Virus record (IMG/VR): IMGVR_UViG_3300020471_002176
Span: 1 to 63,771 of that record
Length of the DNA: 63,771 nucleotides
Source of the DNA: a virus
Lineage: Duplodnaviria; Caudoviricetes
Reading direction: 5' to 3' (one strand)
The notes under the pieces were generated by a model. That model had not been told where the DNA came from, did not search any database, and saw nothing but the letters and a program-made list of their open reading frames with translations. Position 1 is the first letter of the stretch. Every line of letters begins with the position of its first letter. Below are positions 38,120 through 61,759 of the stretch, piece by piece. A program made the translations under genes and the position numbers.

Positions 38120-38383
38120 GTGCCAAAGAAGATATCAACAACCAGAGGATTGAAGGTCGGTGACCTCGTGTATCATCTTTTATATGGGAAAAGTTGGGTG
38201 GGTATTCTTTTGGATCTGAAAGAAGAGTCAAATGGGCTGTCTGCCCCCAGGGAAGTGGGTCTGGTTCAAGTCCAACCGGGAACCGACTATAGTGATTTTT
38301 TTAAGAAAAATGTTTCTAAGAAATATAGAGTCTCCGATAACATGGGCTATGTTTCGTTGAGTTGGTTGTTCAAGCTTGAGTAA
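38120..38383 (+). CDS. KVGDLV-family small protein
   Basis: LKVGDLVYH...VGILL. Confidence 0.55.
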   Translation: MPKKISTTRGLKVGDLVYHLLYGKSWVGILLDLKEESNGLSAPREVGLVQVQPGTDYSDFFKKNVSKKYRVSDNMGYVSLSWLFKLE

Positions 38384-38591
38384 GATAAAGCAAAAAGACC
38401 TCCAACCCGGAGATATGATCATTGTGCTCAACAACAGCTTCTTGCTCGTTAAGGAGACTCCAACCTTCTGGTATTACTTGTGCAATGGCAGTCACTCAGG
38501 TCGGGTGCGAAAAGAAAAACTGCGGTCGAAGTTAAATTCTCCAGACTCAAAGATACTTATTAAGTACAACCACAAGGAGGAACAAAAATGA
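38376..38591 (+). CDS. Small hypothetical protein
   Basis: LQPGDMIIV start, coupled ORF. Confidence 0.45.
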   Translation: MSKIKQKDLQPGDMIIVLNNSFLLVKETPTFWYYLCNGSHSGRVRKEKLRSKLNSPDSKILIKYNHKEEQK

Positions 38592-39418
38592 AAAATTGGA
38601 TCCACGAAATCGGCAGCTCCGGACAAGAAGTGCGCCGACTACAATCAGCACTAGGAAATATAGTGGTCGATGGCAGCTTCGGCCCCAAGACGGAGCAAGC
38701 ATTACAAGAATACCAGAGCAAAAATTCTCTTCAAGTTGACGGCCGTTCTGGCCCAGCAACACGGAGCACCTTGGAAATCGACATCTACCCAGGGATAGAC
38801 GTGAGCAAGTGGAACACGGTTAGCGACTGGTCAACTCTCAAGAACTCTGGGTTAGCTGAGTTTTGCTGGATCAAGGCAACGGAGGGCGGAGACTATATGT
38901 GCCAAGTGTTCGAAAAGCACGCCAAAGCTGCAGCTTCAGCCGGCATACCATATGGCGCTTATCACTTTGCCAGACCAGATTTGAATGACGATCCTCACCG
39001 CGAGGTTCGAAATTTTGTTAAAAATTGCCCGATTGAGAAGGGTCGCCTCCGCCCAGTACTGGATTTTGAAAAAGCAGGCGACCATTCTCCTGACTCTATT
39101 CGAGCCTGGGTTCTTGAGTTTTTACAGGAATTCGAAGCTCAGTCAGGTGTTAGGCCAATAATTTATACAGGGGGCAATATGACCAAATATCATCTCAATG
39201 GTGACACTACTGGCATAGACGATTATATTTTATGGCACGCATATTACAGCAAGAAAGCCCTTAAAAAAGGCATCAAAAAAGACCGCCTAGGAGGCTGGAA
39301 AGAGTGGACTGTTTGGCAATGGACTGGCTCAGGAGAGGTCCCTGGCCACGAGGGCGAGATAGATAGAAATTGGCTCGTGGGTGGCCCATCCGCTCTGAGA
39401 AAAATTAAAATAGAATAG
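38588..39418 (+). CDS. Endolysin: peptidoglycan-binding domain plus GH25 lysozyme
   Basis: VRRLQSAL..VDGSFGPKT..YQ..L.VDG; GIDVSKW, IKATEG, GAYHF, LDFE, WQWT, IDRN. Confidence 0.92.
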   Translation: MKNWIHEIGSSGQEVRRLQSALGNIVVDGSFGPKTEQALQEYQSKNSLQVDGRSGPATRSTLEIDIYPGIDVSKWNTVSDWSTLKNSGLAEFCWIKATEGGDYMCQVFEKHAKAAASAGIPYGAYHFARPDLNDDPHREVRNFVKNCPIEKGRLRPVLDFEKAGDHSPDSIRAWVLEFLQEFEAQSGVRPIIYTGGNMTKYHLNGDTTGIDDYILWHAYYSKKALKKGIKKDRLGGWKEWTVWQWTGSGEVPGHEGEIDRNWLVGGPSALRKIKIE

Positions 39419-39420
39419 TG

Positions 39421-39449
39421 TTGACACCTGGCTTTTTTCCTGATATGAT
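39421..39449 (+). promoter_or_regulatory. sigma70-type promoter
   Basis: TTGACA-N17-TATGAT. Confidence 0.7.
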
Positions 39450-39485
39450 GAAATCACACTTAAATTAAAAGAAAGGAAAATACAG

Positions 39486-39818
39486 TTGAAAATCAACGTA
39501 TTGTGTGTAGTTGCGATTTTGTTTTTATCTTCCTGTATCCACGACGAAAGTCAACAAAATGAAATCAATGAAACTGAGGAAATCTGGGTCTGTTATAACC
39601 CCAAATCCGAAAGGCACGGTAAGCCATGCAAAAAAGATTTCAATCCATCACTAGGAGAGTATGAAACCTGCCACTGGTCAATGAGTGGGTCGTCGCTGGC
39701 TCTCGACGAGAGCGCCTTTTGTTGGCTTCTTGAGAGGCGAGATTGCAGCCCACAGGCAGATTCCGACCTCGGATGGCAGGAATGGCAAGAAAAACATTGC
39801 CCTCTTTTTAGTGAGTGA
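39486..39818 (+). CDS. Small Cys-rich lipoprotein
   Basis: Lipobox FLSSC followed by six further Cys. Confidence 0.55.
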   Translation: MKINVLCVVAILFLSSCIHDESQQNEINETEEIWVCYNPKSERHGKPCKKDFNPSLGEYETCHWSMSGSSLALDESAFCWLLERRDCSPQADSDLGWQEWQEKHCPLFSE

Positions 39819-39825
39819 TACCTTC

Positions 39826-39907
39826 GGGGATATGGCGGAACAGGTAGACGCAGGAGACTTAAAATCTCCCGACTTCGGTCGTGTGGGTTCGATTCCCTCT
39901 ATCCCTA
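39826..39907 (+). tRNA. tRNA-Leu(UAA)
   Basis: Acceptor GGGGATA/TATCCCT, anticodon arm GGAGA-CTTAAAA-TCTCC, long variable arm, GGTTCGATTCC; no encoded CCA. Confidence 0.93.
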
Positions 39908-39997
39908 CAACAAACTTAAGAAACTTGATCATTTTCACTTGACACTCGCCAAGGGGTGATTATTGTATATTAAACCTACTGAACAAAGGAGAAAAAT

Positions 39998-42254: not shown

Positions 42255-42255
42255 G

Positions 42256-42802: not shown

Positions 42803-42987
42803 AATCAGAGCATGTTAAAGTCAACACCTTGTATTTCTCAAAAAGATTTAATTGCTATGGTATGTGCCTAGCGAAAGCCAGGTACATGGCCTATTTATTA
42901 TTCTCTGAAAATAACAAATCAGCATTTAGTGGTTGGTATCATTGCCAGGAGATAGAAAAAAGTCATAAAAAATTTGACAACTCTTGA
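42799..42987 (+). CDS. Hypothetical protein
   Basis: ATGA-coupled ORF. Confidence 0.4.
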   Translation: MKSEHVKVNTLYFSKRFNCYGMCLAKARYMAYLLFSENNKSAFSGWYHCQEIEKSHKKFDNS

Positions 42988-43002
42988 TTTTTGGCGTATA
43001 AT
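42974..43002 (+). promoter_or_regulatory. Perfect-consensus sigma70 promoter
   Basis: TTGACA-N17-TATAAT. Confidence 0.85.
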
Positions 43003-43032
43003 TTAAGTAGGTTAAAAAATAAGGATCACAAA

Positions 43033-43206
43033 ATGAAGGCTGGAGATTTAGTGTCCCACAAGAAATCAAGCAAATTTGCAGTAGTGGTGGAAACAACAGA
43101 AACTGCCCTTTTTCGCCGCACCGACTCTTTGGTTAAAGTCTTGTTTGTCGGCTGCACAAAACCAAGATATGTGCTGGAGAACTCCCTGAAAGTGTTAAAT
43201 AAATGA
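43033..43206 (+). CDS. KVGDLV-family small protein
   Basis: MKAGDLVSH; SD AAGGA. Confidence 0.6.
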   Translation: MKAGDLVSHKKSSKFAVVVETTETALFRRTDSLVKVLFVGCTKPRYVLENSLKVLNK

Positions 43207-43841
43207 TCGAGCAAATAGAGTTAGTCCACGAACGCTGCCAGAGCCTCGACGGACCCCCTAGAGATATTGAATTTCTATCATCAATCAAGCAGTATTATAA
43301 ATCAAAGGGATCCCTGTCACCGGGCCAAACCCGGTGGTTTGAGTCTCTGAAAGAAAAGTATTCTCAATCTGCTGTGGAACAACATCAGATTTGGAATTTG
43401 CAGTTTTCTGACTTCCATCGCGAGACTGCTATCAACGTTGCCCACTACTATAGGCAAACGCAGTATTATCAAGCATTAGTCAGCAAAGTTTTTGCAGATG
43501 TTGAGAATTTTACACTTTCTCAGCGAGAGTGGAATAGGTTCTGTGAAAATAAGTATGCTCTGAAGGTTAGAAACGAGTACGAAAAAGAGCTTCGATTCAA
43601 AATTGGTGACGCCATACAAATTAGGGCCTCAAATAAAGTTCGAGAGGCTAATTACAATAGCGATGGTCGTAGCCCTTCCCTTGGGCGCTTGGTTAACCGC
43701 GTTGGGTTTGTTATCAAGACTGATGCGAAAAAGATAACAAAAGCAAGAAAAGGATCCAGGGTGTATCAGGTGCTTTTGATCGGTGATACTTCACCAATTT
43801 ATGCTCACGAAGCTGACTTAAAGAAGGCAAAGAAAGTATGA
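43203..43841 (+). CDS. Hypothetical protein with a C-terminal KIGD-type SH3-like domain
   Basis: FKIGDAIQIR...VGFVI...YQVL. Confidence 0.5.
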   Translation: MIEQIELVHERCQSLDGPPRDIEFLSSIKQYYKSKGSLSPGQTRWFESLKEKYSQSAVEQHQIWNLQFSDFHRETAINVAHYYRQTQYYQALVSKVFADVENFTLSQREWNRFCENKYALKVRNEYEKELRFKIGDAIQIRASNKVREANYNSDGRSPSLGRLVNRVGFVIKTDAKKITKARKGSRVYQVLLIGDTSPIYAHEADLKKAKKV

Positions 43842-44203
43842 TAAAGTGTATTTCTTTTTTCTACAAAAACCAGAGAGTTGTGGTGAAAGCTGACTCTAGA
43901 GGCTTGTTTCGGGTACCCGTTTCTTACGTCAGGGATGCCTCGATTAAAACAGAATACAGAAATCTTAGGGCGATGCAAATAATCAAACACAAAATAATTA
44001 GAGATTGTGATCCTGTTATCACTCTCCAATCAGGAGAAAAGGTCCGAGTCTTTCAGGGTGGCGACCCGAGTTATTTACCCGCGATGTCAGAGGGTATCTT
44101 ACAAAAGCATGATGATGCAAACAAAAGTAAGACTTCCTTTGTCAAACAAACTACTTTCTATGATTTAGACGACTGGGGAGCGATGCTTGGATACTCAGAT
44201 TAA
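43838..44203 (+). CDS. Hypothetical protein
   Basis: ATGA-coupled ORF. Confidence 0.4.
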   Translation: MIKCISFFYKNQRVVVKADSRGLFRVPVSYVRDASIKTEYRNLRAMQIIKHKIIRDCDPVITLQSGEKVRVFQGGDPSYLPAMSEGILQKHDDANKSKTSFVKQTTFYDLDDWGAMLGYSD

Positions 44204-44411
44204 AATCGGAGACTTGGTCTGGGTCGTACCTGGACACAGATCCCTTACTGGGTGCCCGGAAACGCTGCTTTCAAAGGGCATAGTGATGTCCTCAGTTGGT
44301 GAAGACTGGTATAGGGTTTATCGTTCTTTCGGGAGGGAAAAGACTGACATTTCGGATTTTCCGTATTGGATGCTGAAGAGGGTAGAACAAAAAAGTTATG
44401 AAGGCGGGTGA
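44187..44411 (+). CDS. KVGDLV-family small protein
   Basis: IKIGDLVWV...KGIV; 14-nt overlap with the next gene. Confidence 0.55.
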   Translation: MDTQIKIGDLVWVVPGHRSLTGCPETLLSKGIVMSSVGEDWYRVYRSFGREKTDISDFPYWMLKRVEQKSYEGG

Positions 44412-44595
44412 TTTAGTGATTCTTTCGCAGCGTGCACGTCGGATGGAAACATACCCAACGCGCGTTGAAGATGTTGGCATGATCTACGGGACACCTTTCT
44501 TTTGTTCATATACAGTAATCTGGTCGTCCGATCTGAAAATATCAGTAAATATAGATGAAAGAGACTTGGAGCGCGTCAGTGCAAAAAAACAATAA
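44398..44595 (+). CDS. KVGDLV-family small protein
   Basis: MKAGDLVIL. Confidence 0.6.
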   Translation: MKAGDLVILSQRARRMETYPTRVEDVGMIYGTPFFCSYTVIWSSDLKISVNIDERDLERVSAKKQ

Positions 44596-44848
44596 ACCTG
44601 TTGAGATTGGTGATTTGGTTAGATGTTGCCACCGCAACACCCCAGAGTATGGCAAAACCGGAATCGTTTTAGATAGGATACACTATGTGGAACCTCTGGT
44701 CGTTGATGGCAGCCACCCTGACTCCTATAGCTGTAGGGTTCTCTTCGAAGAAGGCGAAAGGATGTACCGCGCCCGCTGGCTAGAGGTCGTATCAAGAAAA
44801 GTAAAGGAGGATCATAAATTGAAACATGAATACAAGACAGATATTTGA
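44579..44848 (+). CDS. KVGDLV-family small protein
   Basis: VEIGDLVRC...TGIVL; GTG start inferred. Confidence 0.55.
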   Translation: MQKNNKPVEIGDLVRCCHRNTPEYGKTGIVLDRIHYVEPLVVDGSHPDSYSCRVLFEEGERMYRARWLEVVSRKVKEDHKLKHEYKTDI

Positions 44849-45053
44849 CATAGGCGATCTCGTGAAGATATGCCACCCAGTCAACAAGGCGGGGGTAGTG
44901 CTTGAGACAAAACTGATCTCAGAGAGGACACATCCCCATGACCACGCCTGGCACCCAGATGAATATAGGTGCAAAATTCAATACTTAAATTCAAGAGCAA
45001 CTACTTGGGTTAGGGCAAAAATGCTTGTTCATTTATCAAAAATAAATCAATAA
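44826..45053 (+). CDS. KVGDLV-family small protein
   Basis: FDIGDLVKI...AGVVL. Confidence 0.55.
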   Translation: MNTRQIFDIGDLVKICHPVNKAGVVLETKLISERTHPHDHAWHPDEYRCKIQYLNSRATTWVRAKMLVHLSKINQ

Positions 45054-45058
45054 TATCA

Positions 45059-47891: not shown

Positions 47892-47895
47892 GAGT

Positions 47896-49158: not shown

Positions 49159-49161
49159 AAT

Positions 49162-50031: not shown

Positions 50032-50238
50032 ATGTCTTTGGAAGTAGGAGATCTTGTCGCCTGTTATGTGACAAACACTAGCGAATACGAATCCCTTATG
50101 AGCTGGGGTGTAGTCTTAGACACCAATACTGTTGGTGACGTGCTAGTTGTTGATAACGCCGGGTACACTCGCTGGTGGCCACCGTCACGTTGGAGAATCT
50201 TGAACAAAAAAGAACCAAAACCTCTTGACAAAAACTAG
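50032..50238 (+). CDS. KVGDLV-family small protein
   Basis: LEVGDLVAC...WGVVL. Confidence 0.55.
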   Translation: MSLEVGDLVACYVTNTSEYESLMSWGVVLDTNTVGDVLVVDNAGYTRWWPPSRWRILNKKEPKPLDKN

Positions 50239-50287: not shown

Positions 50288-50662
50288 ATGGGCTATAGAT
50301 CAGAAGTTTGTATTGGATTGACGGACGCAGCCAGTCGTTTGTTTCGAACGATGGTGGAGCACATGCCACCAGGGCATGAGGTTCATCAGCTACTAAGGGA
50401 TGCTCAATCAAATTTACACAACACTCCGTGGACAAACCAACACAAGGCGCCAAACGTCGATTGTGAAGACAAGATGTACTGGGAATATGTAAAGTGGTAT
50501 GAAGGCTACGAATGTGTAGACTTCATTGAAAACTTCCTTTCAGAGTGTATCCCCGAAGATGATTACAGGTTTATACGCATCGGGGAAGAAAGTGACGACG
50601 TTGAAGAGAGGGGTGAATTCTTCGATGCGGACATATATGTAACGAGGTCGATTTCATGGTGA
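50288..50662 (+). CDS. Phage hypothetical protein
   Basis: MGYRSEV...VKWY...FIRIGEESDDVEERG. Confidence 0.6.
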   Translation: MGYRSEVCIGLTDAASRLFRTMVEHMPPGHEVHQLLRDAQSNLHNTPWTNQHKAPNVDCEDKMYWEYVKWYEGYECVDFIENFLSECIPEDDYRFIRIGEESDDVEERGEFFDADIYVTRSISW

Positions 50663-50985
50663 CTCTAGGCTCTCTGGTGAAAGAAGACTGCAGCATTGCG
50701 TCGAAGGCCCGCGTGGGTACGGTTGTCAAAGTTACAACGATCCCGTTGCATAATAATTATCAATGGCGCTCGGAAGTAGAGCGTTGGGTTTCCTACAATA
50801 ACCGAGCGGGAAATGAACAACCAGACATGAACATGTGTTACGTCATTCGCCCAGGAAAAGTGGCGACTGTAAGGTGGCAGAATGATTCTACAGATCGATC
50901 AGTACACATATTTTATGACGACTGCAATGGTCACTCTTTCTATAGTTATGGTAGCAACGGGGTGGAGGTCTTGAATGGAGACTGA
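50656..50985 (+). CDS. KVGDLV-family-like protein
   Basis: VTLGSLVK...VGTVV...VRW...VEVL. Confidence 0.45.
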   Translation: MVTLGSLVKEDCSIASKARVGTVVKVTTIPLHNNYQWRSEVERWVSYNNRAGNEQPDMNMCYVIRPGKVATVRWQNDSTDRSVHIFYDDCNGHSFYSYGSNGVEVLNGD

Positions 50986-51178
50986 AGGCATGTTGATGTG
51001 GCTGTTTATCTCTGTTGTCGGTGTGTTTATACTCATGAGGCTGTCTTCGCTTGCGGAGCAAACTAGACTGAACAGTTTACAGGAAGATCTCATGAGAGAG
51101 ACAGTTCGGCGTCTGGTGCAAAAAAGAAAGCTTGATGAGCTTTATGGCAGAGGAGATGATGAAAATGAAAGTCGGTGA
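50975..51178 (+). CDS. Small membrane protein ending in the cassette junction (ENESR*)
   Basis: N-terminal TM helix; 3' end ATGAAAGTCGGTGA. Confidence 0.55.
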   Translation: METEGMLMWLFISVVGVFILMRLSSLAEQTRLNSLQEDLMRETVRRLVQKRKLDELYGRGDDENESR

Positions 51179-51383
51179 CTTAGTGACATTGTCGGCTTAT
51201 GGCAAGTCAGTTAAGAGAGCATCCTGGATCGGCGCCGATAATTTCGGATTGATTATAAAGGTCGTCCCCTGGGCCAGCGGTAATGATTGCGACTATATTG
51301 TGCGATGGCAGAAGCCTACCTTAAATCGCCGTTGGCATCACGAAAGATATAACCAAAGAAAGGATCTTAAGTACTTGAAATGA
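51165..51383 (+). CDS. KVGDLV-family small protein
   Basis: MKVGDLVTLSAYG with an exact junction repeat. Confidence 0.65.
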   Translation: MKVGDLVTLSAYGKSVKRASWIGADNFGLIIKVVPWASGNDCDYIVRWQKPTLNRRWHHERYNQRKDLKYLK

Positions 51384-51967: not shown

Positions 51968-52252
51968 ATGAATAACACTAACGAATCGTTTAGAAATGTC
52001 AGGAAGCAGGCTTCAAAGATTTTGAAGGATATTTCAAACTCATACAACACTGGTCTTCTCGATGACCCCAACTTTGCTGCAAATTTCACAGCATTGCTGG
52101 CTTGTATTTGCGAGGGTAAAGTCACTGGCCGCATAGACGAAACTGGAGACGTTGTACTTTGGTCCTTAACGCCTGAGTACGAAGCTCAGCTTCTGGAACA
52201 GAGAAGATCTATTGCAGAGTCCCTAAATAACACCATCAAGGGTCCGTGGTGA
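51968..52252 (+). CDS. Hypothetical protein
   Basis: 94 aa ORF. Confidence 0.45.
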   Translation: MNNTNESFRNVRKQASKILKDISNSYNTGLLDDPNFAANFTALLACICEGKVTGRIDETGDVVLWSLTPEYEAQLLEQRRSIAESLNNTIKGPW

Positions 52253-52419
52253 AAAAGGGGGACATTGTTACTTATCTCAATCAGAGGGGACTGTTTGGTT
52301 TAGTGGTCGAAATCCTGGAGACAAGTAATTACGCCCCAACAATGGTAAGAGTGGCCTGGCTCCATAAGGAGCCGTCCGTGGAGCTAGTACCTCACTTGAG
52401 AATGTTGTCAAGCCAATGA
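52249..52419 (+). CDS. KVGDLV-family small protein
   Basis: VKKGDIVTY...FGLVV...VRVAW; coupled on both sides; not in the ORF track. Confidence 0.55.
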   Translation: MKKGDIVTYLNQRGLFGLVVEILETSNYAPTMVRVAWLHKEPSVELVPHLRMLSSQ

Positions 52420-52649
52420 AGTTAAACCCTGGAGATTGCGTTTACTATGGGGAGCATAGAGCCTTAGGTTTTTTGATTCGGCGTTTCACACCGAAAGACG
52501 ACCACAGAGTTCATTGGGAGTACGCTCTCAGGAGCCCACAGAGAGATGATTGGAGTAATATAATAGTGAGTATTCAGACTTCACCTGAAGCCTACTTTAT
52601 TCAGGGTTTTGAGGATAAGAGGCTGAATCTTTACAGGGCCCGACTATGA
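52416..52649 (+). CDS. KVGDLV-family-like protein
   Basis: LNPGDCVYY...LGFLI. Confidence 0.45.
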   Translation: MKLNPGDCVYYGEHRALGFLIRRFTPKDDHRVHWEYALRSPQRDDWSNIIVSIQTSPEAYFIQGFEDKRLNLYRARL

Positions 52650-53698: not shown

Positions 53699-54136
53699 AT
53701 GAATGCAATTACAGTCAGACGACACCCTGGCCTTTTGGGTCACAAATATATAACTGAGGCACTTGATAACCTGTTTGGTGATCAACACTTCATGGACGGA
53801 GCAATTAAACACTCCACGAAAGGATACCCCGTAGCCGATATTTACCGCGACGACGATGGTAGTACAATTATTGAATTCGCCCTGGCTGGATTTAAGAGAA
53901 AGGAGCTAACCATTGATGTCAAACCTGATAAACGCGCCATCACCGTTACTGGAACGGCGAACGAGTCAAATGAAAAGAGGCATAGGATAGCAAGACGAAA
54001 TTTTACTCGCACTTATGTAAATTATGACGACAACCTGGATCTATCATCCACAAAGGCCACGTTTGAAAATGGCCTCTTGACAGTGAGAGTACCTCAGCGC
54101 CCTGAGGTAAAGCCTCTAACTATTGAAATTAATTGA
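53699..54136 (+). CDS. Small heat-shock protein (Hsp20)
   Basis: YPVADI, IEFALAGF, IARRNFTR, ATFENGLLTV. Confidence 0.9.
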   Translation: MNAITVRRHPGLLGHKYITEALDNLFGDQHFMDGAIKHSTKGYPVADIYRDDDGSTIIEFALAGFKRKELTIDVKPDKRAITVTGTANESNEKRHRIARRNFTRTYVNYDDNLDLSSTKATFENGLLTVRVPQRPEVKPLTIEIN

Positions 54137-54561: not shown

Positions 54562-54738
54562 ATGAGGCTCGGCAGTCTAGTTCATTTTTGTTCCTCCTTC
54601 AAAAAGTGGAGCGAGGAATACTCTCCTCGAAACCCTGGAATAGTATTAGAGGTCAGAAACAAAGCTGCTCGTGTGCTGTGGCGCACTGGAGAGACTAGCT
54701 GTGAGCACTTATCCTTTTTAAGAACCCTGAGCGAATAG
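54562..54738 (+). CDS. KVGDLV-family-like small protein
   Basis: MRLGSLVH...PGIVL...VLW..G; not in the ORF track. Confidence 0.5.
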   Translation: MRLGSLVHFCSSFKKWSEEYSPRNPGIVLEVRNKAARVLWRTGETSCEHLSFLRTLSE

Positions 54739-54768
54739 GGTTATTTTTGAATAAGAGTTGGAGGCGAA

Positions 54769-54996
54769 ATGAAAGTCGGAGACCTAGTGAAGCTATCCAG
54801 TTATGGCATCGCCCGCGGTTACAATGCGCGCTTAACCACAGAAGATGCGACGCAATTAGGTTTAATTGTCAAGGTGAGAATAAACGGATCTTATCCTTAT
54901 AAAGTTCGATGGTCAAAACTTAAACCTAGCTCCATGGACGTTGGCCATATGCGTAGAGAATTGAAATACGCATATAAGAACGGGCAAATGAGATGA
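54769..54996 (+). CDS. KVGDLV cassette gene A1
   Basis: MKVGDLVKLSSYG; GGAGG SD. Confidence 0.7.
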   Translation: MKVGDLVKLSSYGIARGYNARLTTEDATQLGLIVKVRINGSYPYKVRWSKLKPSSMDVGHMRRELKYAYKNGQMR

Positions 54997-55199
54997 AAGT
55001 CGGTGATTTGGTTCGTTGGACAATGGTTGAACACTGTTATCATATTGCTTGTGGCGTACCTGGATTAGACTTGACAGACGCAAGAAAACGTGGTATTATA
55101 GTAGATAACAATGGCATTAACTTTTTTGTTCGCTGGGAGAACGGCGATATCAAGGCGGCAAAACCAAACACAATCGAGGTAATCAGTGAAAGTCGGTGA
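54993..55199 (+). CDS. KVGDLV cassette gene A2
   Basis: MKVGDLVRW...EVISESR*. Confidence 0.7.
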   Translation: MKVGDLVRWTMVEHCYHIACGVPGLDLTDARKRGIIVDNNGINFFVRWENGDIKAAKPNTIEVISESR

Positions 55200-55374
55200 C
55201 TTGGTCAAGTATGAAAGTTGGCATACGGGATTGCAAGGTCTGGCAGGAGTTGTTATTGAATTTAGGCCACTACCATCCGGCGACCGCGCCCGCGTCCTAT
55301 GGTCTACTTCTCGACCAACACCTATTCGCTGGGACTGGGCTGAAGAATTAAGGATTGTCAATGAAAGTCGGTGA
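55186..55374 (+). CDS. KVGDLV cassette gene A3
   Basis: GTG start; ...RIVNESR*. Confidence 0.7.
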   Translation: MKVGDLVKYESWHTGLQGLAGVVIEFRPLPSGDRARVLWSTSRPTPIRWDWAEELRIVNESR

Positions 55375-55567
55375 TATAGTTACAGATGATTTCTACGAGG
55401 ACATCGGTCTCATTGTAGGCGGCCCAAGACTATCGGAAGATTGCGATTTTGTTCGATTCGGAACAATGATGGGCGATGTTTACGAAGTAGTAGATGTGCT
55501 GTGTCCAGATGGCACGTTAAGGTTGTTTACAACGGATGAATTAAGAGTTATCAGTGAAAGTCGGTGA
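55361..55567 (+). CDS. KVGDLV cassette gene A4
   Basis: MKVGDIVTD...RVISESR*. Confidence 0.7.
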   Translation: MKVGDIVTDDFYEDIGLIVGGPRLSEDCDFVRFGTMMGDVYEVVDVLCPDGTLRLFTTDELRVISESR

Positions 55568-55742
55568 TTTAGTGAAGAACGGCCAGGGGCATACGGGGAT
55601 TGTGACAGGCATAGGGTACGTAGGCGCACTCAAGGCTTACGAGGAATCACCCAGCTTGAACCCAGACATTCACGTCATGACTCCGAATGGTTTTCGTCTC
55701 TGGTCATACAAGACTTTAAGGGTGATCAGTGAAAGTCGGTGA
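55554..55742 (+). CDS. KVGDLV cassette gene A5
   Basis: GTG start; ...RVISESR*. Confidence 0.7.
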   Translation: MKVGDLVKNGQGHTGIVTGIGYVGALKAYEESPSLNPDIHVMTPNGFRLWSYKTLRVISESR

Positions 55743-55905
55743 TTTGGTGAGATATTTTAATGCAGCTTATCACTCCACTCAGGTTGGTATCATTGTTGCT
55801 ACTGAGCATGGGCTTCAATCAATAAAGGTCCGATGGACGGACCACACGCCATCATCACGAGACTGGTATACCCAGTTTGAATTGAGAAAAGTGAAGGAGA
55901 TTTAG
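55729..55905 (+). CDS. KVGDLV cassette gene A6
   Basis: KVGDLVRYF...VGIIV...KVRW...ELRKVKEI*; not in the ORF track. Confidence 0.65.
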   Translation: MKVGDLVRYFNAAYHSTQVGIIVATEHGLQSIKVRWTDHTPSSRDWYTQFELRKVKEI

Positions 55906-55907
55906 AG

Positions 55908-56108
55908 ATGCCACTTGAAGACGATATTTTTGACGATTTTATGATGAATCGAGCATGTCAAGCTGCAATGTTTGCTGATTTTGTGGCTCTTCTAAATATG
56001 AAAGCAGTAGAGAACGTAAAAAACTCAGAAAAGATGGAACTTTTGACAGAGATCCTCAATGATTTGAAGCTTTTTACTAATCCTGCCATAAATGAGCTGA
56101 GCCACTGA
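55908..56108 (+). CDS. Hypothetical protein
   Basis: SD AAGGAG. Confidence 0.45.
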   Translation: MPLEDDIFDDFMMNRACQAAMFADFVALLNMKAVENVKNSEKMELLTEILNDLKLFTNPAINELSH

Positions 56109-56342
56109 ATGATACGTTCTAGATCCGAGCGACCCAAAAAGACAAAGATCGAGCTTGATCTCACAGGCCCACAAGGCAATGCCTATTACTTATTGGGCGT
56201 AACCAAGCGCCTTGGTGAGCGCCTTGGTTATTCGAAAAAGAGAATTGAAGCGATTCAACATGTGATGTTGCTTACTAATTATGAAGGCCTGATTCACACG
56301 TTCGATAAAGAATTTGGTGATTATGTCATACTTTGGAGGTGA
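56109..56342 (+). CDS. Phage hypothetical protein
   Basis: IELDLTGPQGNAYYLLG...NYEGLI..FDKEFG. Confidence 0.6.
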   Translation: MIRSRSERPKKTKIELDLTGPQGNAYYLLGVTKRLGERLGYSKKRIEAIQHVMLLTNYEGLIHTFDKEFGDYVILWR

Positions 56343-56410
56343 AATATGAGTTTCTGGGAGGCCCTCTTAAGAGGGTTAAAATTCTTCGATAAAAAAGAAA
56401 AGAAAAAAGC

Positions 56411-56439
56411 TTGACTCAGGCCCCTGATTTTGGTAAAAT
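56411..56439 (+). promoter_or_regulatory. sigma70-type promoter driving the second cassette block
   Basis: TTGACT-N17-TAAAAT with a TG extension. Confidence 0.75.
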
Positions 56440-56471
56440 AGTATTACGACAATCAAGAAAGGCTTATTTCA

Positions 56472-56675
56472 ATGTCCCACGCAATTTGTATCAAGTGCCA
56501 GTGTAGTTTTAATCCTCGTCGCCTAGAACTCGGTTATCGAACCTGCTTATCTTGTGGTGGTGCAGCCGCTGAGAAAGAAAGATCACGCAAAGCAAAGTGT
56601 TCTGCGCCTGCCTATAACAAGGGCGCATACCAATACGTCGGCACCGTTCAGGCCGCCAAAGGAGTCGGTCGTTGA
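56472..56675 (+). CDS. Small Zn-finger protein
   Basis: CIKC...RRLELGY.TCLSCG...YNKGAYQY. Confidence 0.6.
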   Translation: MSHAICIKCQCSFNPRRLELGYRTCLSCGGAAAEKERSRKAKCSAPAYNKGAYQYVGTVQAAKGVGR

Positions 56676-56875
56676 AGGTTGGCGATATTATCGAGGCTAG
56701 ACACGGCGAAATTGGTATGGTTATCTCAGTCGAGTATATGTACCCGACCCACCCTCAGTCGCCGGCTTCTCGTGTCAAGGTCGATTGGATCAGTGAGCCG
56801 CCTCAATGGTGTCCGCCCGGTCTAATGTTTTCGACGTTTGCGATCAAACGAGTGGTGAGTCGTGCATCGAGGTGA
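56672..56875 (+). CDS. KVGDLV cassette gene B1
   Basis: TTG start KVGDIIE; ends VVSRASR* with a 14-nt overlap. Confidence 0.65.
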   Translation: MKVGDIIEARHGEIGMVISVEYMYPTHPQSPASRVKVDWISEPPQWCPPGLMFSTFAIKRVVSRASR

Positions 56876-57026
56876 TTTAGTGAAGTATTACGGCTCCTGG
56901 AGCGATGTTGGCATTGTTCTCTTGGTTAATGACGAGGGAGGGACCGTCAAGGTACACCGCCTCCGAGAGAATGACACAAAGTGGTGGGTCACAAGCGGCT
57001 GTGAGGTCATCAGTGAAAGTCGGTGA
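56862..57026 (+). CDS. KVGDLV cassette gene B2
   Basis: HRGDLVKYY...EVISESR*; not in the ORF track. Confidence 0.65.
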   Translation: MHRGDLVKYYGSWSDVGIVLLVNDEGGTVKVHRLRENDTKWWVTSGCEVISESR

Positions 57027-57186
57027 CTTAGTGAGGGTCGAAAACTCCTATGTTAATCGTATTGGGATAATCGTTGCCAAGGCGGAACAAAACAGGTGTT
57101 ATCTTGTCCAATTCTGTGACGACAACAGCCCGATTCGGTGCTCTTATCATGTGAATGTTATCAGGAGAATCAGTGAAAGTCGGTGA
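57013..57186 (+). CDS. KVGDLV cassette gene B3
   Basis: KVGDLVRV...RRISESR*. Confidence 0.7.
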   Translation: MKVGDLVRVENSYVNRIGIIVAKAEQNRCYLVQFCDDNSPIRCSYHVNVIRRISESR

Positions 57187-57373
57187 CTTAGTGACAATGG
57201 TCCCATTCAACGCTCCTCCGCAGTTGTATGGCGTGGGTGTAATCGTGGAAAAGCTACAGCTATGTCCTTCAAATCCAAATGCTGTAAGAGTGAAGGTAAG
57301 TTGGTCAGGCGGCCTCAATACTCCGCCGCGCATCGGGAATTGCCACCCTAGAGTTCTGGTCCCACTATCATGA
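57173..57373 (+). CDS. KVGDLV cassette gene B4
   Basis: KVGDLVTM...VGVIV...VKVSW. Confidence 0.7.
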   Translation: MKVGDLVTMVPFNAPPQLYGVGVIVEKLQLCPSNPNAVRVKVSWSGGLNTPPRIGNCHPRVLVPLS

Positions 57374-57546
57374 AGATCGGTGATCTAGTGCAACACGTTG
57401 ATATGCCGAAAGCGCATCGCATCTTGGGTATTGTGGTTGAAACATATGTCGATCTCGATACATGCGATGTTATTTGGCTCGATAGAGGTAGTGAGGTTTT
57501 TCATCATTACACTTTTTCTTTGGAGCTAATCAGTGAAAGTCGGTGA
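57370..57546 (+). CDS. KVGDLV cassette gene B5
   Basis: MKIGDLVQH...ELISESR*; not in the ORF track. Confidence 0.65.
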   Translation: MKIGDLVQHVDMPKAHRILGIVVETYVDLDTCDVIWLDRGSEVFHHYTFSLELISESR

Positions 57547-57715
57547 TTTGGTAAAATTGATGCCCCATTGCCGCGACAGTGATCGACTAGCGATGGTGGT
57601 AGAGATGCCAGGCCCATTGTTTGGGCTTAATTGTGTGAAAATAATGTTTCTTGACAACGGTAAAAGAACACCGGCCACTAAGAATAATCTGGAGATCATC
57701 AGTGAAAGTCGGTGA
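57533..57715 (+). CDS. KVGDLV cassette gene B6
   Basis: KVGDLVKL...EIISESR*. Confidence 0.7.
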   Translation: MKVGDLVKLMPHCRDSDRLAMVVEMPGPLFGLNCVKIMFLDNGKRTPATKNNLEIISESR

Positions 57716-57902
57716 TTTGGTATACTATTGTGATGACCTTAACGATGACACCAGACCAGGTCTTGTTTTAGAGATTATAAGTTGGGTCGATAAAGGCGCA
57801 CCTGATAGAAACTTCGGCCTTGATATCAAAGTACTCTGGCCAGACGGCAGTCGAATGCTTTGTGGCGAACATGAATTGAGAACTGTTGATGAAAGTCGGT
57901 GA
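57702..57902 (+). CDS. KVGDLV cassette gene B7
   Basis: KVGDLVYY...RTVDESR*. Confidence 0.7.
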   Translation: MKVGDLVYYCDDLNDDTRPGLVLEIISWVDKGAPDRNFGLDIKVLWPDGSRMLCGEHELRTVDESR

Positions 57903-58047
57903 CTTGGTAAGACACAAACGTAGAAACTGGCACGCTCTTATCGTGACTGTTGACCAACCTCGAAGGCATATCAAGCTTTTGGATGAGGAGGGCAGTGTGT
58001 TTTGGGAAAGGATGAGCGACTACGAGGTGATCAGTGAAAGTCGGTGA
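57889..58047 (+). CDS. KVGDLV cassette gene B8
   Basis: MKVGDLVRH...EVISESR*; not in the ORF track. Confidence 0.65.
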   Translation: MKVGDLVRHKRRNWHALIVTVDQPRRHIKLLDEEGSVFWERMSDYEVISESR

Positions 58048-58201
58048 TCTGATTGTGGATAAAGAGTATCCCACCGAGCCAGGTATTATTATAGAAGAGA
58101 GTTCAGTTAACTTCTTTGTACTTGACCCCACCGGCAAAGTTGTGCCGCTTACGAAGGAGTATATTGAGGATGATTGCGAGGTGATCAGTGAAAGTCGGTG
58201 A
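58034..58201 (+). CDS. KVGDLV cassette gene B9
   Basis: KVGDLIVD...EVISESR*; not in the ORF track. Confidence 0.65.
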   Translation: MKVGDLIVDKEYPTEPGIIIEESSVNFFVLDPTGKVVPLTKEYIEDDCEVISESR

Positions 58202-58352
58202 TTTGGTTAGACTAAAAAGATACCCAACAAGTATGTCAGCGGTGGTTATCAGTATACTGAACGGCAATGGATACCTAGATATGCGGAGAGCTGACGGAGT
58301 GGTATGTTTCGCACATGAAAGTTCCTTGGAGGTAATCAGTGAAAGTCGGTGA
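58188..58352 (+). CDS. KVGDLV cassette gene B10
   Basis: KVGDLVRL...EVISESR*; not in the ORF track. Confidence 0.65.
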   Translation: MKVGDLVRLKRYPTSMSAVVISILNGNGYLDMRRADGVVCFAHESSLEVISESR

Positions 58353-58530
58353 TTTGGTTAGGTACACACCAGAGGGAACAATCGACGATCGCTGGGCTGA
58401 TTGGTATGGTCTGGTGGTTAGGATGATTCCAGGCACGTCCGAAATGACTGTGGTTAGGTGGAACAAGGACAACAATAACACATTATCAATCAGAAAAAAG
58501 GACTTAACTGTAGTCAATGAAAGTCGGTGA
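58339..58530 (+). CDS. KVGDLV cassette gene B11
   Basis: KVGDLVRY...TVVNESR*. Confidence 0.7.
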   Translation: MKVGDLVRYTPEGTIDDRWADWYGLVVRMIPGTSEMTVVRWNKDNNNTLSIRKKDLTVVNESR

Positions 58531-58636
58531 TTTGGTGAAAAATAATCTTGAAGCAGCCTTCGCCATCTCAGTGGCTATACTGATACCAATTTTTGCAATA
58601 CTGATTGGCCTTGCACTAGGGGCAGTGGTTGTATGA
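58517..58636 (+). CDS. Cassette gene B12: MKVGDLV fused to a TM helix
   Basis: MKVGDLVKNNLEAAFAISVAILIPIFAILIGLALGAVVV*. Confidence 0.55.
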   Translation: MKVGDLVKNNLEAAFAISVAILIPIFAILIGLALGAVVV

Positions 58637-58821
58637 CACTTAAAGTCGGTGATTTAGTAAAGGACAACCATCCGAGTTGGGCGGGTGCTGAAAGAATTGG
58701 CGTGATTGTCGGTCGGACAAAATCAGCACTGCACAACAAGTCATTCAAAGTCCTGTGGCGCAACGGCACCATCGGAAATAATGTTTGGGATTATGACTTA
58801 AAAATCATAAAAAGCTCTTGA
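58633..58821 (+). CDS. KVGDLV cassette gene B13
   Basis: MTLKVGDLVKD...IGVIV...KVLW..G. Confidence 0.7.
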   Translation: MTLKVGDLVKDNHPSWAGAERIGVIVGRTKSALHNKSFKVLWRNGTIGNNVWDYDLKIIKSS

Positions 58822-58846: not shown

Positions 58847-58882
58847 ATGTGAGTAGAAACAATCAAGAAAGGTTATTTTTCT

Positions 58883-59651: not shown

Positions 59652-59881
59652 GAACAGTACAACAAATGGTTGAGGCTTACACGGAAATGAGAAGCCGGAG
59701 TGCTTTTGATAGTATGTATCAAGAGGCCATGTGGCAGTACATTGACATGGCCAAAGGCGGAGACGGAGGAGATCTCGGCTTTACCCGCGATGGAGAAACG
59801 ACCTGTCGAGGCATCAACTATCAGGGATACCCAGACGAGTTTTTTCAGCAGGTTTGTCTGAAAATGGGATGGCTCGGTTGA
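59648..59881 (+). CDS. Hypothetical protein
   Basis: Coupled ORF. Confidence 0.5.
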   Translation: MRTVQQMVEAYTEMRSRSAFDSMYQEAMWQYIDMAKGGDGGDLGFTRDGETTCRGINYQGYPDEFFQQVCLKMGWLG

Positions 59882-59986
59882 CTATGGCTCAGATGATTGG
59901 GGATATTTTCTTGCTCTTGTGCATCATCTGTGCAGCCGTAGTGTTCATCATAGCAAACGTAAGATATTTACCAGAGGATAAAGAAG

Positions 59987-60256
59987 ATGAATGAGGAGCC
60001 CTGGCGTCCAAAACCAGGCGCATTAGTGCAGATTTGGGACCACTCAGCAGAAAAAGAGCCCGCGGAGCTTCCGATCGTCGGCCATGGCGAAGTGGGTTAT
60101 GTCGTCAGACGCTCATCAATGGAGCTGACGCCAGACGGCCCAATTTTTGAGGTTATTTGCTTTGGTGAAAGTGAAACGACAAGACATCATGTTTGGCATG
60201 GCTGGCTAAGAGAGATAAATAAGACTTCTGATATTAAAAAAATAAATGATGCATAA
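59987..60256 (+). CDS. SH3-like hypothetical protein
   Basis: PKPGALVQ...VGYVV...FEV. Confidence 0.45.
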   Translation: MNEEPWRPKPGALVQIWDHSAEKEPAELPIVGHGEVGYVVRRSSMELTPDGPIFEVICFGESETTRHHVWHGWLREINKTSDIKKINDA

Positions 60257-60310
60257 TTTCTCCGCGTTGGCAGCCACCCTTGTAAGACCAACGCGGAGCT
60301 TCATTCTTGT

Positions 60311-60384
60311 GCGCTCTTAGCTCAGTTGGATAGAGCAACGGCCTTCTAAGCCGTTGGTCGGAGGTTCGAGTCCTCCAGGGCGTG
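60311..60384 (+). tRNA. tRNA-Arg(UCU)
   Basis: GCGCTCT/AGGGCGT acceptor, TAGCTCAGTTGGATAGAGC D arm, ACGGC-CTTCTAA-GCCGT, GGAGG-TTCGAGT-CCTCC. Confidence 0.93.
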
Positions 60385-60391
60385 CTGCTTA

Positions 60392-60645
60392 TGGCATGTG
60401 CGATGCCTTCCCGCGAGTGGGTAAATCAAGGGGCTACGTAGCCTTGAAAGCACTGGTGAGTTTTCTATGGGGGTTCTCACTGAAACAAAAAAAACCCCTC
60501 GTTTATCCCGTGGGGGACATAGACCAGATTGGTGGTGGGTAAGACTCAATCGAGCAGTAAGCCATCAGGTGGTTGCGTAAGCGTGGGAGTGATTCCCAGG
60601 GTAGGCTATGTCCAGTTGTGAGAAGTTGGGAACTCGCGACATTTT
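60392..60645 (+). ncRNA. Candidate structured RNA downstream of tRNA-Arg
   Basis: Successive hairpins plus an 8-bp closing stem GGACATAG/CTATGTCC. Confidence 0.4.
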
Positions 60646-60782
60646 TTGTAAAAAAAGGAGAAAAGAATGGTAGTTTCAGCAATAATTCTTGGAATTGTGA
60701 CGACATTGTTGCTTATTGCGGTCGCGGGTTAATCCCCGTCCCGCCCTCGCGCGATTTTTTTTCAATTCGCGGTATTTTTTTC

Positions 60783-60811
60783 TTGACCTAGCGGTCAAGA
60801 TAGGCTATAAT
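60783..60811 (+). promoter_or_regulatory. sigma70-type promoter with an overlapping palindrome
   Basis: TTGACC-N17-TATAAT; TCTTGACC-TAGC-GGTCAAGA. Confidence 0.8.
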
Positions 60812-60929
60812 GGTAACACAAACAATCGAGAAAGGTAAAAAATGTTGGACTTTGTTGCAACCGTCGCTGCAATCGCTATGGGACTCTGGGTAGGTCAGAT
60901 GTTAATCGACCGCTCTGGAAGGCGTTAGA

Positions 60930-61133
60930 GTGACACAAAAAAAATACAATCACGCATTTACGATTAGTTGGTCGTTCAACAGCGACTACTCAAAAGAAGA
61001 GTGGGAAGATAGGATCGACACACAGGAAGGGATCATGGAAGCCTGCGCCCACTTGTTTAAGCGCATCAATCAGGTAATGAAAGACCGTGAGGTTGATGCC
61101 TTTGATCTCTGGGATTCATACGAAAACCACTAG
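60930..61133 (+). CDS. Hypothetical protein
   Basis: 67 aa ORF. Confidence 0.45.
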   Translation: MTQKKYNHAFTISWSFNSDYSKEEWEDRIDTQEGIMEACAHLFKRINQVMKDREVDAFDLWDSYENH

Positions 61134-61141
61134 GGGGAAAA

Positions 61142-61357
61142 ATGCCTGGTAAAACAAAGTTGTTGCTGCTAATAATTGCCTTTGCCTTGCAGGGCTGTCC
61201 ACTTGAGGATCAGGGTTGCGAAAAAAAAGTTATGCAGTGCGAAGATGATATAGAAATGTTTTGCGATAAAAACGATTCAGGGTGCGGTGAAGTTTGCCAG
61301 TATTACACCTACGAATATTGTTATGAAGTTTGCAAGGGAGAAAAAAATGATCTTTGA
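61142..61357 (+). CDS. Small Cys-rich lipoprotein
   Basis: Lipobox LQGC; many Cys. Confidence 0.55.
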   Translation: MPGKTKLLLLIIAFALQGCPLEDQGCEKKVMQCEDDIEMFCDKNDSGCGEVCQYYTYEYCYEVCKGEKNDL

Positions 61358-61526
61358 AGGTATGAATTGTGGCTTCCGCACGATGACGCGCGAATATATC
61401 GAGCGAATGACGCGAGACGAACTCGTCGAATGGCTGGAGTTTCGAGGCACGGCGTGTTATGATGATGAACCAACAAGTCTGCTGCGCGATTGTGCGTTGG
61501 ACGATTACGACTGCGAGGCAATGTAA
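61347..61526 (+). CDS. Hypothetical protein
   Basis: SD AAGGGAG; coupled ORF. Confidence 0.45.
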   Translation: MIFEGMNCGFRTMTREYIERMTRDELVEWLEFRGTACYDDEPTSLLRDCALDDYDCEAM

Positions 61527-61759
61527 TGAAAAAAGGCGATCTAGTCAAGCCACTAAATAGCTGTGGTGGGGAGCCAGGACAAATTCGATGCGAGACAGCG
61601 ATCGTCGTCGAGTCTCGACAAAATGGTCCATTCACCCCAGAGAATACATGGTGGATGAAAGCGTGGTGTCCATGTGGCACAATCGAGGATTATTCATGGC
61701 ACTTTGAAAAGCTTGGGGAGGTCGAGCCAGAACTGGCTTACAGCGCGGATCCGATGTAG
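61526..61759 (+). CDS. KVGDLV-family small protein
   Basis: MKKGDLVKP; TAATG coupling. Confidence 0.55.
   Translation: MKKGDLVKPLNSCGGEPGQIRCETAIVVESRQNGPFTPENTWWMKAWCPCGTIEDYSWHFEKLGEVEPELAYSADPM

Follow-up and report, generated by a model that had tools for sequence, protein, structure and literature searches.

Why does a marine phage carry some thirty small genes whose products begin with nearly the same few residues, and why does it chain eighteen of them head to tail? The question is raised by the virus record IMGVR_UViG_3300020471_002176, which was analysed over its whole length of 63,771 bp and is referred to here as the window; it is a complete IMG/VR record, rated linear and about 35% complete, and it comes from an uncultured marine myophage with a whole genome of about 185 kb. 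The genes lie on the + strand, partly in a tandem array at 54769..58821 (18 family genes of 52–75 residues, together with one open reading frame (ORF) that has only the head of the family) and partly dispersed around it, and in a single region of 25 kb they account for about one gene in three. A first, sequence-only reading had seen in them an expansion of more than 30 KVGDLV proteins on a KOW/SH3-like scaffold, used as a repertoire of binders. The region encodes one unnamed family of SH3/KOW/Tudor-like five-strand beta-barrels, mostly of 52–97 residues. The overall explanation that we favour, and hold to be probable rather than secure, combines this barrel family with a junction-linked chain of genes, the exchange of whole genes as cassettes and a use of the proteins as host-directed binding modules.

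How far does the family reach? The 18 array genes alone were made into a profile, which was searched against 1164 six-frame ORFs of at least 30 residues. All 18 array genes score between E 1e-12 and 2e-20 with their own profile, which recovers nine dispersed ORFs at E<1e-3 (51132, 44555, 42991, 44826, 44398, 52246, 54562, 63476 and 38120), finds no − strand ORF below E=1 among the 1164 and settles at 27 members when it is iterated with the dispersed ones added. A relaxed form of the head motif turns up 37 times across the three + frames versus 4 times across the three − frames, and the 11-mer AAAGTCGGTGA is found 16 times on the + strand and never on the other, with 0.03 occurrences expected. 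Each of the 16 places outside the array at which related heads had been listed does hold a + strand ORF with an x-G-[D/S/A]-x-[V/I] head, and their membership of one family stands firmly for half of them, eight being recovered at E<1e-3 (heads at 38120, 43033, 44398, 44579, 44826, 51165, 52249 and 54562). Six more (50032, the C-terminus of 43203, 59987, 61526, 50656 and 44187) are probable members, with hidden Markov model (HMM) E values of 0.013–1.2 and, in hhalign re-tests of the doubtful ORFs with orthologues from four related genomes added, probabilities of 70–92%; the remaining two, 38376 (1%) and 52416 (20%), find no support in sequence. Single-sequence hhalign of eight doubtful ORFs had little power (0.6–73%), and eight unrelated small ORFs, put through the re-test with orthologues as a control, reached at most 0.7%. 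One further member lies beyond the 16 heads (63476–63664, E 5e-4). Thus the count of more than 30 is reached only if the probable members are included, 27 being solid and 6 probable, and the additional 39-residue ORF at 58517, with its family head only, stands outside this count. The proposed sub-pair of 44579 and 44826 is borne out (32% identity over 73 residues, E 2e-6), as is the use of varied codons in the dispersed heads, among which the array 11-mer occurs only in 51165. Database families are of little help: none of the 37 small proteins has a Pfam match above threshold, the weak ones being to DUF1918 and YccV-like (both E 0.0039), and PHROGs returns a single weak match, phrog_12836 at E 0.0066, for 51132.

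What fold do the proteins adopt? Array copy 55729, modelled by AlphaFold from a 27-sequence alignment (predicted local distance difference test score, pLDDT, 87.8), and the outlier 59987, modelled from four sequences only (pLDDT 74.2), have the same five-strand SH3-like topology, in agreement with the small beta-barrel scaffold proposed earlier; on the question of heterogeneous folds, structure prediction with Foldseek finds that the folds agree in the two members modelled. In both models DSSP assigns strands 1–5 and, separating strand 4 from strand 5, a brief helical stretch ('HHH'), which is the arrangement of the SH3-like superfold (five antiparallel strands in a barrel that is closed or partly open, with a 3-10 or helical turn before the last), and many members of that superfold are matched at Z scores of 6–8. 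The Foldseek and VIA-align matches of 55729 comprise Spt5 KOW, PWWP, the PHF19 Tudor domain, NdhS, R67 DHFR, PsaE, PetP, YorP and HspQ, of which Spt5 KOW is the best (Z 8.0, root-mean-square deviation 2.5, 56 residues aligned), and 59987 returns the same set of KOW, Tudor, PsaE and NdhS matches. The likeness to the superfold (KOW of NusG/Spt5, Tudor/chromo/PWWP, PsaE, NdhS, PetP, R67 DHFR and YorP of the B. subtilis phage SPbeta) extends to strand order, the helical turn and a length of about 55–60 residues, with template modelling (TM) scores of 0.6–0.8, and the GD-hydrophobic-V head resembles the start of the KOW motif; the family differs in an identity of 7–24% to solved structures, in standing alone and in having a head of its own and, in arrays, an -ESR tail. 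The family profile reaches PDB sequences at sub-threshold values only, almost all of them KOW proteins and PsaE (NusG E 0.026, uL24 E 0.028, range 0.026–0.03, PsaE similar), and the Pfam KOW model (PF00467) is listed for 0 of the 37 small proteins even at E<=1. The BFVD matches are small uncharacterised phage proteins and include runs of neighbouring UniProt accessions, which suggests that other uncultured phages also carry several copies. Small SH3/Tudor-like barrels form the largest phage-only structural clusters according to the Viral AlphaFold Database paper (PMC12487901).

On this scaffold it is the loops that vary, as had been claimed: the beta1-beta2, beta2-beta3 and beta3-beta4 loops measure 1–20, 0–16 and 3–16 residues, respectively. 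Conservation is concentrated in the strands (KVGDLV, G-I/V-V-V, V-x-W and L-x-V-I), the three loops differ in sequence as well as in length, and the barrel-forming residues are retained in all copies.

How are the genes of the array held together? When the 19 array boundaries are aligned, about 28 nucleotides stand out at 73–100% column identity, the remainder being at a background of 26–57%; a representative of this dual-coding junction lies at 58325..58358 on the + strand, with a consensus of approximately GGAGGT-ATCA-GTG-AAAGTCGGTGA-TTTGGT. In one frame the junction encodes the end of the upstream gene, ..L-E-V-I-S-E-S-R-stop, and in a second frame the start of the downstream gene, GTG-K-V-G-D-L-V, so that neighbouring genes overlap by 14 nucleotides. 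The upstream E-V-I codons (GAG GTG ATC) are a near-perfect ribosome-binding site 6 nucleotides before the start; the fixed codons fall where this site, of the GGAGGTGATC type, coincides in two frames with the upstream stop and with the start and head that lie downstream. The residue in the tail goes with the next start codon (-SESR with GTG, -NESR or -DESR with ATG), implying that the tail is co-determined with the start of the following gene, and the T of GGT forms the TGA stop, so that the fixation of these codons is in part a dual-coding constraint. The array had been thought to be homogenised. This is true of the junction of about 28 nucleotides and not of the gene bodies, whose DNA identity is that of the background; as proteins, array copies are at most 40% identical to one another over full length, and the gene bodies are as diverged as those of the dispersed copies. 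Exchange of whole cassettes at the junction would itself keep the junction uniform, which makes homogenisation limited to the junction plausible.

Within the array, the promoter-like sites are those at 55017, 55071, 56411 and 58517 only, one of them straddling a junction; the other array junctions have no promoter hexamers and no strong hairpin, and the sole terminator-like hairpin near the array, at 54723–54742, precedes its first gene. Over the whole window, sigma-70-like sites with at least 10 of 12 matching positions number 26 on the + strand versus 4 on the − strand, including a 12-of-12 site before 42991, and they fit transcription by the host polymerase of much of the region from 10 to 63 kb. 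The label 'early', as applied to this putatively early region, derives only from these strand-biased sites.

The junction was also considered as a structured or recombinogenic element. A junction RNA hairpin may exist but lacks support, the consensus fold being weak (−4.4 kcal/mol) with invariant pairs and no covariation. Integron-type cassette arrays are marked by the tyrosine recombinase IntI and by attI/attC sites on either side of the cassettes; no attC-like imperfect palindrome was found at the junction. An integrase domain was not found among the 40 larger proteins of the window, which covers only about 35% of the genome and was scanned without the relatives.

Does the same construction exist elsewhere? 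Relatives were found in IMG/VR through a 14-nucleotide word of the junction. Among 139 loci fetched, 78 have at least one family member, 57 at least three and 26 at least eight; five records searched whole, three of them rated 100% complete (185–191 kb), one 88% and one 61%, give 25, 27, 14, 15 and 17 matches. Building an HMM and counting copies in related phages had been suggested as a check, and in four relatives (G001–G004) the family profile finds 27, 27, 12 and 15 copies. Related phages of about 160–190 kb hold the chained genes in other numbers and orders. The 11-mer occurs on the gene strand 16 times in the window, 16 in G001, 15 in G002, 9 in G003 and 3 in G004, and never on the other strand, and it persists in the relatives although synonymous sites of the core genes are saturated. 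Beyond these genomes, a profile search of 1.84 billion cluster representatives returned 2933 at E<=1e-3, mostly of 50–70 residues, many of which share the head and the ESR tail.

The order of the genes is where array and dispersed copies part. Gene order in the window is collinear with that of G001 and G002, the core genes being about 80% identical in protein, and six dispersed copies (38120, 43203, 44187, 50032, 59987 and 63476) have their best counterpart at the corresponding position in relatives; counterparts of 44826 also occur in G001 and G002, at places that do not strictly correspond. Array copies behave otherwise. Counted along the window rather than by the array numbers 1–18 used below, genes 9, 10, 13, 16, 24, 25 and 26 have reciprocal best matches of at least 50% identity at G002 positions 25, 17, 10, 26, 6, 19 and 8, and genes 13, 16, 24 and 26 have theirs at G001 positions 16, 14, 20 and 12. 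Of the 18 array genes, three lack any reciprocal match in the four genomes, and four more have one only below 40%. Four cassettes were each set against two relatives: inside them the DNA is 60–95% identical, and directly outside both junctions the figure falls to 20–45%. Two evolutionary regimes are apparent from these sequence comparisons: the dispersed copies lack the junction and mostly hold their position, and the array copies are permuted among relatives.

From these observations we propose the following mechanism. The array chain would be translated as a coupled polycistron, each ribosome-binding site and start being embedded in the end of the preceding gene. The junction would double as a short patch of homology at which co-infecting relatives may exchange whole genes, and such exchange, together with the dual-coding constraint, would keep the junction codons fixed. 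The proteins would then be small binding modules of fast turnover directed against host factors or defences, each copy with a target of its own.

The evidence for exchange is best weighed between G001 and G002. Alignable core DNA of the two genomes averages 72% identity, and particular cassettes (G001:11681-11862 with G002:130934-131114, and G001:14616-14798 with G002:130615-130797) share 92–94.5%. High-scoring segment pairs (HSPs) of cassette length are at 83–94.5% identity in 10 of 11 cases, whereas 40 of the 46 other HSPs are below 80% and 6 of 46 at or above it, a contrast that is inflated, since short HSPs are detectable only at high identity. The proportion of synonymous differences (pS) is free of that bias: it is 0.72–0.88 in core genes (n=8) and 0.04 (an orthologous pair) and 0.52 in cassette pairs, a contrast that rests on two pairs, the third G001–G002 cassette pair being saturated at 0.84. 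These limits weigh against our explanation, as do several other points. The cassettes of the window itself show no sign of recent exchange, their pS to relatives being 0.58–1.0, at or near saturation. Conservation of the junction in the relatives is partly there by construction, these having been picked by a junction 14-mer; the number and strand bias of the 11-mer in them, by comparison, are not by construction. Translational coupling alone could account for the conservation of the junction. A fold of the SH3-like type says nothing specific about a ligand. No RNA run was found to contain the region, and no cultured relative was found, tblastn of the DNA polymerase III alpha subunit giving only relatives of at most 30% identity.

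What, then, are the proteins for? In 12 orthologue pairs between the window and its relatives, with head and tail codons excluded, the proportion of nonsynonymous differences (pN) is 0.22–0.31 versus a pS of 0.58–1.0; pS is saturated in 11 of the 12 pairs, and the ratios that can be computed are 0.09–0.35. Since pN is far below pS, the proteins are under purifying selection and are maintained. The function suggested by the sequence-only reading, a repertoire of binders against defence proteins, RNA polymerase or ribosomes, is plausible as an interpretation, and purifying selection on each copy, the spread of charge, the fast turnover and the setting in an accessory region rich in ORFan genes are all compatible with it.

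The strongest competitor, though in our view an unlikely one, is that the proteins bind RNA as regulators in the manner of Sm/KOW proteins, and would act on the stability or translation of phage or host mRNA rather than on diverse proteins. The fold class does include KOW, Sm/LSm and Tudor binders of nucleic acid, and 16 of the 27 window copies have an isoelectric point (pI) above 8; four of the 27, on the other hand, are strongly acidic (net −5 to −9), and a range of net charge from −9 to +10 across the copies makes a single common ligand unlikely. No conserved basic or aromatic surface patch exists beyond the strand-forming residues, and wild-type GoF and MotB.1, small T4 proteins of a comparable predicted fold, were without effect in an assay described in PMC12152347.

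Another idea is that the array genes are mainly selfish mini-cassettes, spread through junction homology with little or no benefit to the phage. That the movement of cassettes between lineages outpaces the divergence of core genes, and that seven array genes have either no counterpart in the relatives or a poor one (the three and four given above), is what such elements would show. Amino-acid change is, against this, far below synonymous change in every window orthologue pair examined, the residues that form the barrel are kept throughout, and lineages whose core genes are only 55–70% identical still hold 12–27 copies; we regard a mainly selfish nature of the array genes as improbable.

A somewhat less credible alternative again, and in fact a special case of the binder reading, is that the proteins are stand-alone mimics of the NusG/Spt5 KOW domain, which would compete for KOW partners such as ribosomal protein S10, Rho or RNA polymerase, thereby uncoupling transcription and translation in the host or redirecting them. 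Spt5 KOW is the best structural match and the KOW regions of NusG and uL24 are the best sequence matches, these last being sub-threshold; but all 37 small proteins stay below the threshold of the Pfam KOW model, Tudor, PWWP, PsaE and NdhS follow within 1 Z unit, and some 30 highly divergent copies are hard to square with one conserved partner. That a repeated DNA element merely creates chance ORFs with no protein family behind them, as might be thought from a DNA word being the most conserved feature of the array, is scarcely credible and already contradicted by the profile, model, selection and codon results, given dispersed members with the same protein pattern in different codons, pN far below pS, a confident AlphaFold model and thousands of metagenome homologues.

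Returning to the explanation by exchanged binding modules, a bolder form of it can be put forward, and only tentatively: the junction would be a dedicated plug-in site, not merely a consequence of overlapping genes, and the array a means of cassette exchange without a recombinase, through which a pool of thousands of SH3-like binders (the 2933 clusters at 50% identity) might circulate among large marine phages, each phage holding a subset that changes to suit the physiology and the defences of the hosts it currently infects. If this were true, the array would work as an integron does, though lacking an integrase, and would supply modules for counter-defence or for takeover of the host.

How does this arrangement compare with known systems? 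Among the closest are the promoter-early stem-loop (PeSL) cassettes of T4-type phages, for which modular shuffling in hyperplastic regions is described in Arbiol et al. 2010 (PMC2839356) and Comeau et al. 2014 (PMC4122927). As in the PeSL system, a short conserved repeat lies between small non-essential genes of a large myophage, and relatives differ by insertion, loss, replacement and reordering of genes between the repeats; here the permuted order, the drop in identity at the junctions of four of four cassettes and the one-cassette-long HSPs between G001 and G002 likewise place the repeats at the break points. The PeSL is, in contrast, an intergenic unit of promoter and terminator, whereas the present junction lies within coding sequence, is made up of a ribosome-binding site, a start, the codons of the head and a stop in overlap with them, and joins the members of one family; a composite of strong sigma-70-like early promoter and stem-loop terminator is absent at the array junctions. 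Three T4 early proteins, GoF, MotB.1 and Frd.2, form an 'LSm-like fold' family according to Kim et al. 2025 (PMC12152347), and they too are small, dissimilar in sequence and predicted to have a small-barrel fold at the N-terminus. Compared by description, these are three scattered T4 genes with no shared junction, and the family of the window counts about 30. The T-even internal-protein (IP) locus, reportedly treated by Repoila et al. in 1994, is said to consist of polymorphic genes with a conserved N-terminal leader, and thus of variable small genes sharing a conserved 5' coding segment as a possible recombination patch; that leader is said to be a cleaved capsid-targeting peptide, and the conserved head here is the first strand of the fold. 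A full-text literature search found no description of the family or of the junction.

Small SH3/Tudor-like barrels are reported to be the commonest phage-only fold (PMC12487901), yet almost none has a known function. With about 30 natural variants in each genome, and thousands at sea, of one scaffold with variable loops, the present lineage is a ready-made library for finding the ligands of such barrels. A single sequence of 28 nucleotides here provides the stop, the ribosome-binding site, the start and the first strand, and would be a way to chain, co-translate and swap tiny genes; accessory-gene turnover through it differs in construction from the published cassettes of promoter and terminator.

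Which genes make up the array? Its first gene (54769..54996, 75 residues; all features in this paragraph and the next are on the + strand) lies downstream of the terminator-like hairpin and is followed by gene 2 (54993..55199, 68 residues, with a reciprocal best match of 58% in G002), gene 3 (55186..55374, 62 residues, recognised by the profile), gene 4 (55361..55567, 68 residues, net charge −9 and a long beta2-beta3 loop) and gene 5 (55554..55742, 62 residues), which has orthologues of 74–76% in G001 and G002 at other array positions and whose DNA identity drops at both junctions. Gene 6 (55729..55905, 58 residues) is the modelled copy. Here the array is broken by three unrelated small ORFs at 55908–56675, namely a 66-residue ORF, a 77-residue member of phrog_1933 and a 67-residue protein with two CxxC pairs (phrog_4593); the last ends in the diverged junction that starts gene 7, and the promoter-like site at 56411 falls in this interval. 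Gene 7 (56672..56875, 67 residues) starts with TTG at that junction, gene 8 (56862..57026, 54 residues) has an MHRGDLV head and orthologues of 51–69% in three relatives, gene 9 (57013..57186, 57 residues, GTG start) has no reciprocal match in the four relatives, and gene 10 (57173..57373, 66 residues, GTG start) lacks the ESR tail. They are followed by genes 11 (57370..57546, 58 residues) and 12 (57533..57715, 60 residues), both assigned by the profile, gene 13 (57702..57902, 66 residues, GTG start), gene 14 (57889..58047, 52 residues, again by the profile), gene 15 (58034..58201, 55 residues, net charge −8), gene 16 (58188..58352, 54 residues, orthologues of 63–67% at permuted positions) and gene 17 (58339..58530, 63 residues, by the profile). 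The head-only ORF of 39 residues (58517..58636) starts with an exact array junction and reads MKVGDLVK and then a hydrophobic stretch; the HMM matches the head only (E 4e-4), the ORF is not of barrel length, and its remainder resembles a membrane helix. It may be the remnant of a cassette or an unrelated mini-gene with an acquired family start. Gene 18 (58633..58821, 62 residues), with an MTLKVGDLV head, closes the array.

The dispersed members have no -ESR tail and carry the same head in varied codons. The solid ones comprise 38120..38383 (87 residues, E 5.6e-4, with syntenic orthologues in G001 (60%), G002 and G004); 42991..43206 (head at 43033, E 6.5e-7), with the 12-of-12 sigma-70-like site at 42974–43002; 44398..44595 (65 residues, E 8.8e-5), which overlaps the end of 44187 by 14 nucleotides; 44555..44848 (97 residues, head at 44600, E 8.4e-8), which pairs with 44826..45053 (75 residues, E 4.2e-5, orthologues in G001 and G002); 51132..51383 (E 1.9e-8), whose head at 51165 has the exact array 11-mer; 52246..52419 (57 residues, E 4.2e-4); and 54562..54738 (58 residues, MRLGSLV head, E 4.7e-4), directly upstream of the array. 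The G002 gene that best corresponds to 51165 stands at the end of that phage's array, a pattern that looks as if a cassette had moved. The member at 63476..63664 (62 residues, E 5.4e-4) has no KVGD head, and its G001 orthologue (59–60%) is itself an HMM match. Among the probable members, 50032..50238 (68 residues) has HMM E values of 0.014–0.04, an hhalign probability of 91.9% with three orthologues and a G001 orthologue that is itself an HMM match; 43599..43841 is the C-terminal domain of the 212-residue protein 43203–43841 (HMM E 0.014–0.06, hhalign 91.6% over residues 133–209), whose G002 orthologue is itself an HMM match; 59987..60256 (89 residues, KPGALV head, hhalign 88.7%) is the outlier modelled as a five-strand barrel, and its homologues retain the GDLV head; and 61490..61759 (head at 61526) has HMM E values of 0.012–0.17 and an hhalign probability of 87.3% over the first 25 columns only. 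Two of the six are better called possible, 50656..50985 (109 residues, TLGSLV head, HMM E 0.15–1.5, hhalign 76% over 24 columns) and 44187..44411 (74 residues, HMM E 0.24–1.2, hhalign 70%), the G001 orthologue of the latter having a VKVGDLV head and an -ESR tail and being an HMM match. The listed head at 52416..52649 (hhalign 14–20%) is unsupported as a member by sequence, and its fold may be SH3-like to judge from an ESM Atlas model with TM scores of 0.55–0.62 to barrels of the DUF1653 and CarD-RID types. The one at 38376..38591 (hhalign 0.6–1%) is not supported as a member; its homologue in G001 (G001:20001-40000, local ~1960-2418, minus) is twice as long, with an extra C-terminal part that bears an LDLHG motif somewhat like those of Smr domains.

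A search for longer, fused forms gave nothing at E<=1e-3 and is weak evidence; the profile search of cluster representatives gave an in-frame fusion of two family units that ends in -ISESR (P0146) and a protein of 1156 residues with an uncharacterised N-terminal part of 400 residues and then at least five family-like repeats, for which Pfam has no match (P0106). A multi-repeat profile match with ZZ fingers and a weak MIB_HERC2 match (P0009) is probably a eukaryotic SH3-like repeat protein.

A megablast of 38000–62000 against 50,697 phage records found no close GenBank phage, a tRNA-Arg gene being the sole match among the 15 listed of 55 records, and tblastn of copy 57533 against the same 50,697 records gave no match at E<=0.01. 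This tRNA-Arg(TCT) gene, at 60311–60385, matches many unrelated phages, being widely shared rather than specific to the lineage, and its contig depth is very high in each of the four marine runs (270–457 in three). Portions of the array are present in contigs of marine metagenome runs, and marine contigs carry the junction 11-mer with many different flanks. Apparent joints in the contigs of four DNA runs were considered as rearrangements of this phage and rejected, their sides being 21–37 nucleotides long and reflecting the junction in other phages; sides of under 40 nucleotides are also too short to reveal excised mini-circles of the kind attributed to PeSL cassettes. A 21-nucleotide word of the junction also occurs in four contigs of metagenome-assembled or single-amplified genomes labelled Flavobacteriales, Legionellales, Halobacteriota and 'uncultured bacterium', which are likely to be contigs of phages; since the labels conflict, they point to no host. 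The Legionellales contig (84.5 kb, from a metagenome-assembled genome) has 10 family matches in 6 kb, an unclassified contig of the same kind has 14 in 4.5 kb, and the Halobacteriota contig comes from a single-cell assembly.

The remainder of the window is that of a large myophage. Its larger genes encode a tail sheath and a T4-type baseplate protein; a gp32-like single-stranded DNA-binding protein, RecA/UvsX, DnaB and the polymerase III alpha subunit for the handling of DNA; ribonucleotide reductase, dUTPase and GMP reductase for nucleotide metabolism; and ClpP, GroEL, DnaK, Hsp20, a MoxR/VWA pair and a GH25 lysozyme; there are three tRNA genes. From 36 kb onward a run of small ORFs follows on the same strand, and a PHROG scan of 39 neighbouring ORFs outside the family left 32 without a match, none of the seven matches being informative on function. 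The set of chaperones and proteases is unusually full for a phage; it comprises ClpP, GroEL, DnaK/Hsp70, Hsp20 and an AAA ATPase of the MoxR type whose partner is a DUF2201 VWA/metallopeptidase, and its genes lie at 31461–35461, 39998–41854, 46818–49158 and 53699–54136 of the window. A 704-residue protein at 20818–22932 has many putative metal-binding repeats of the MopE type (PF11617, E 2e-23).

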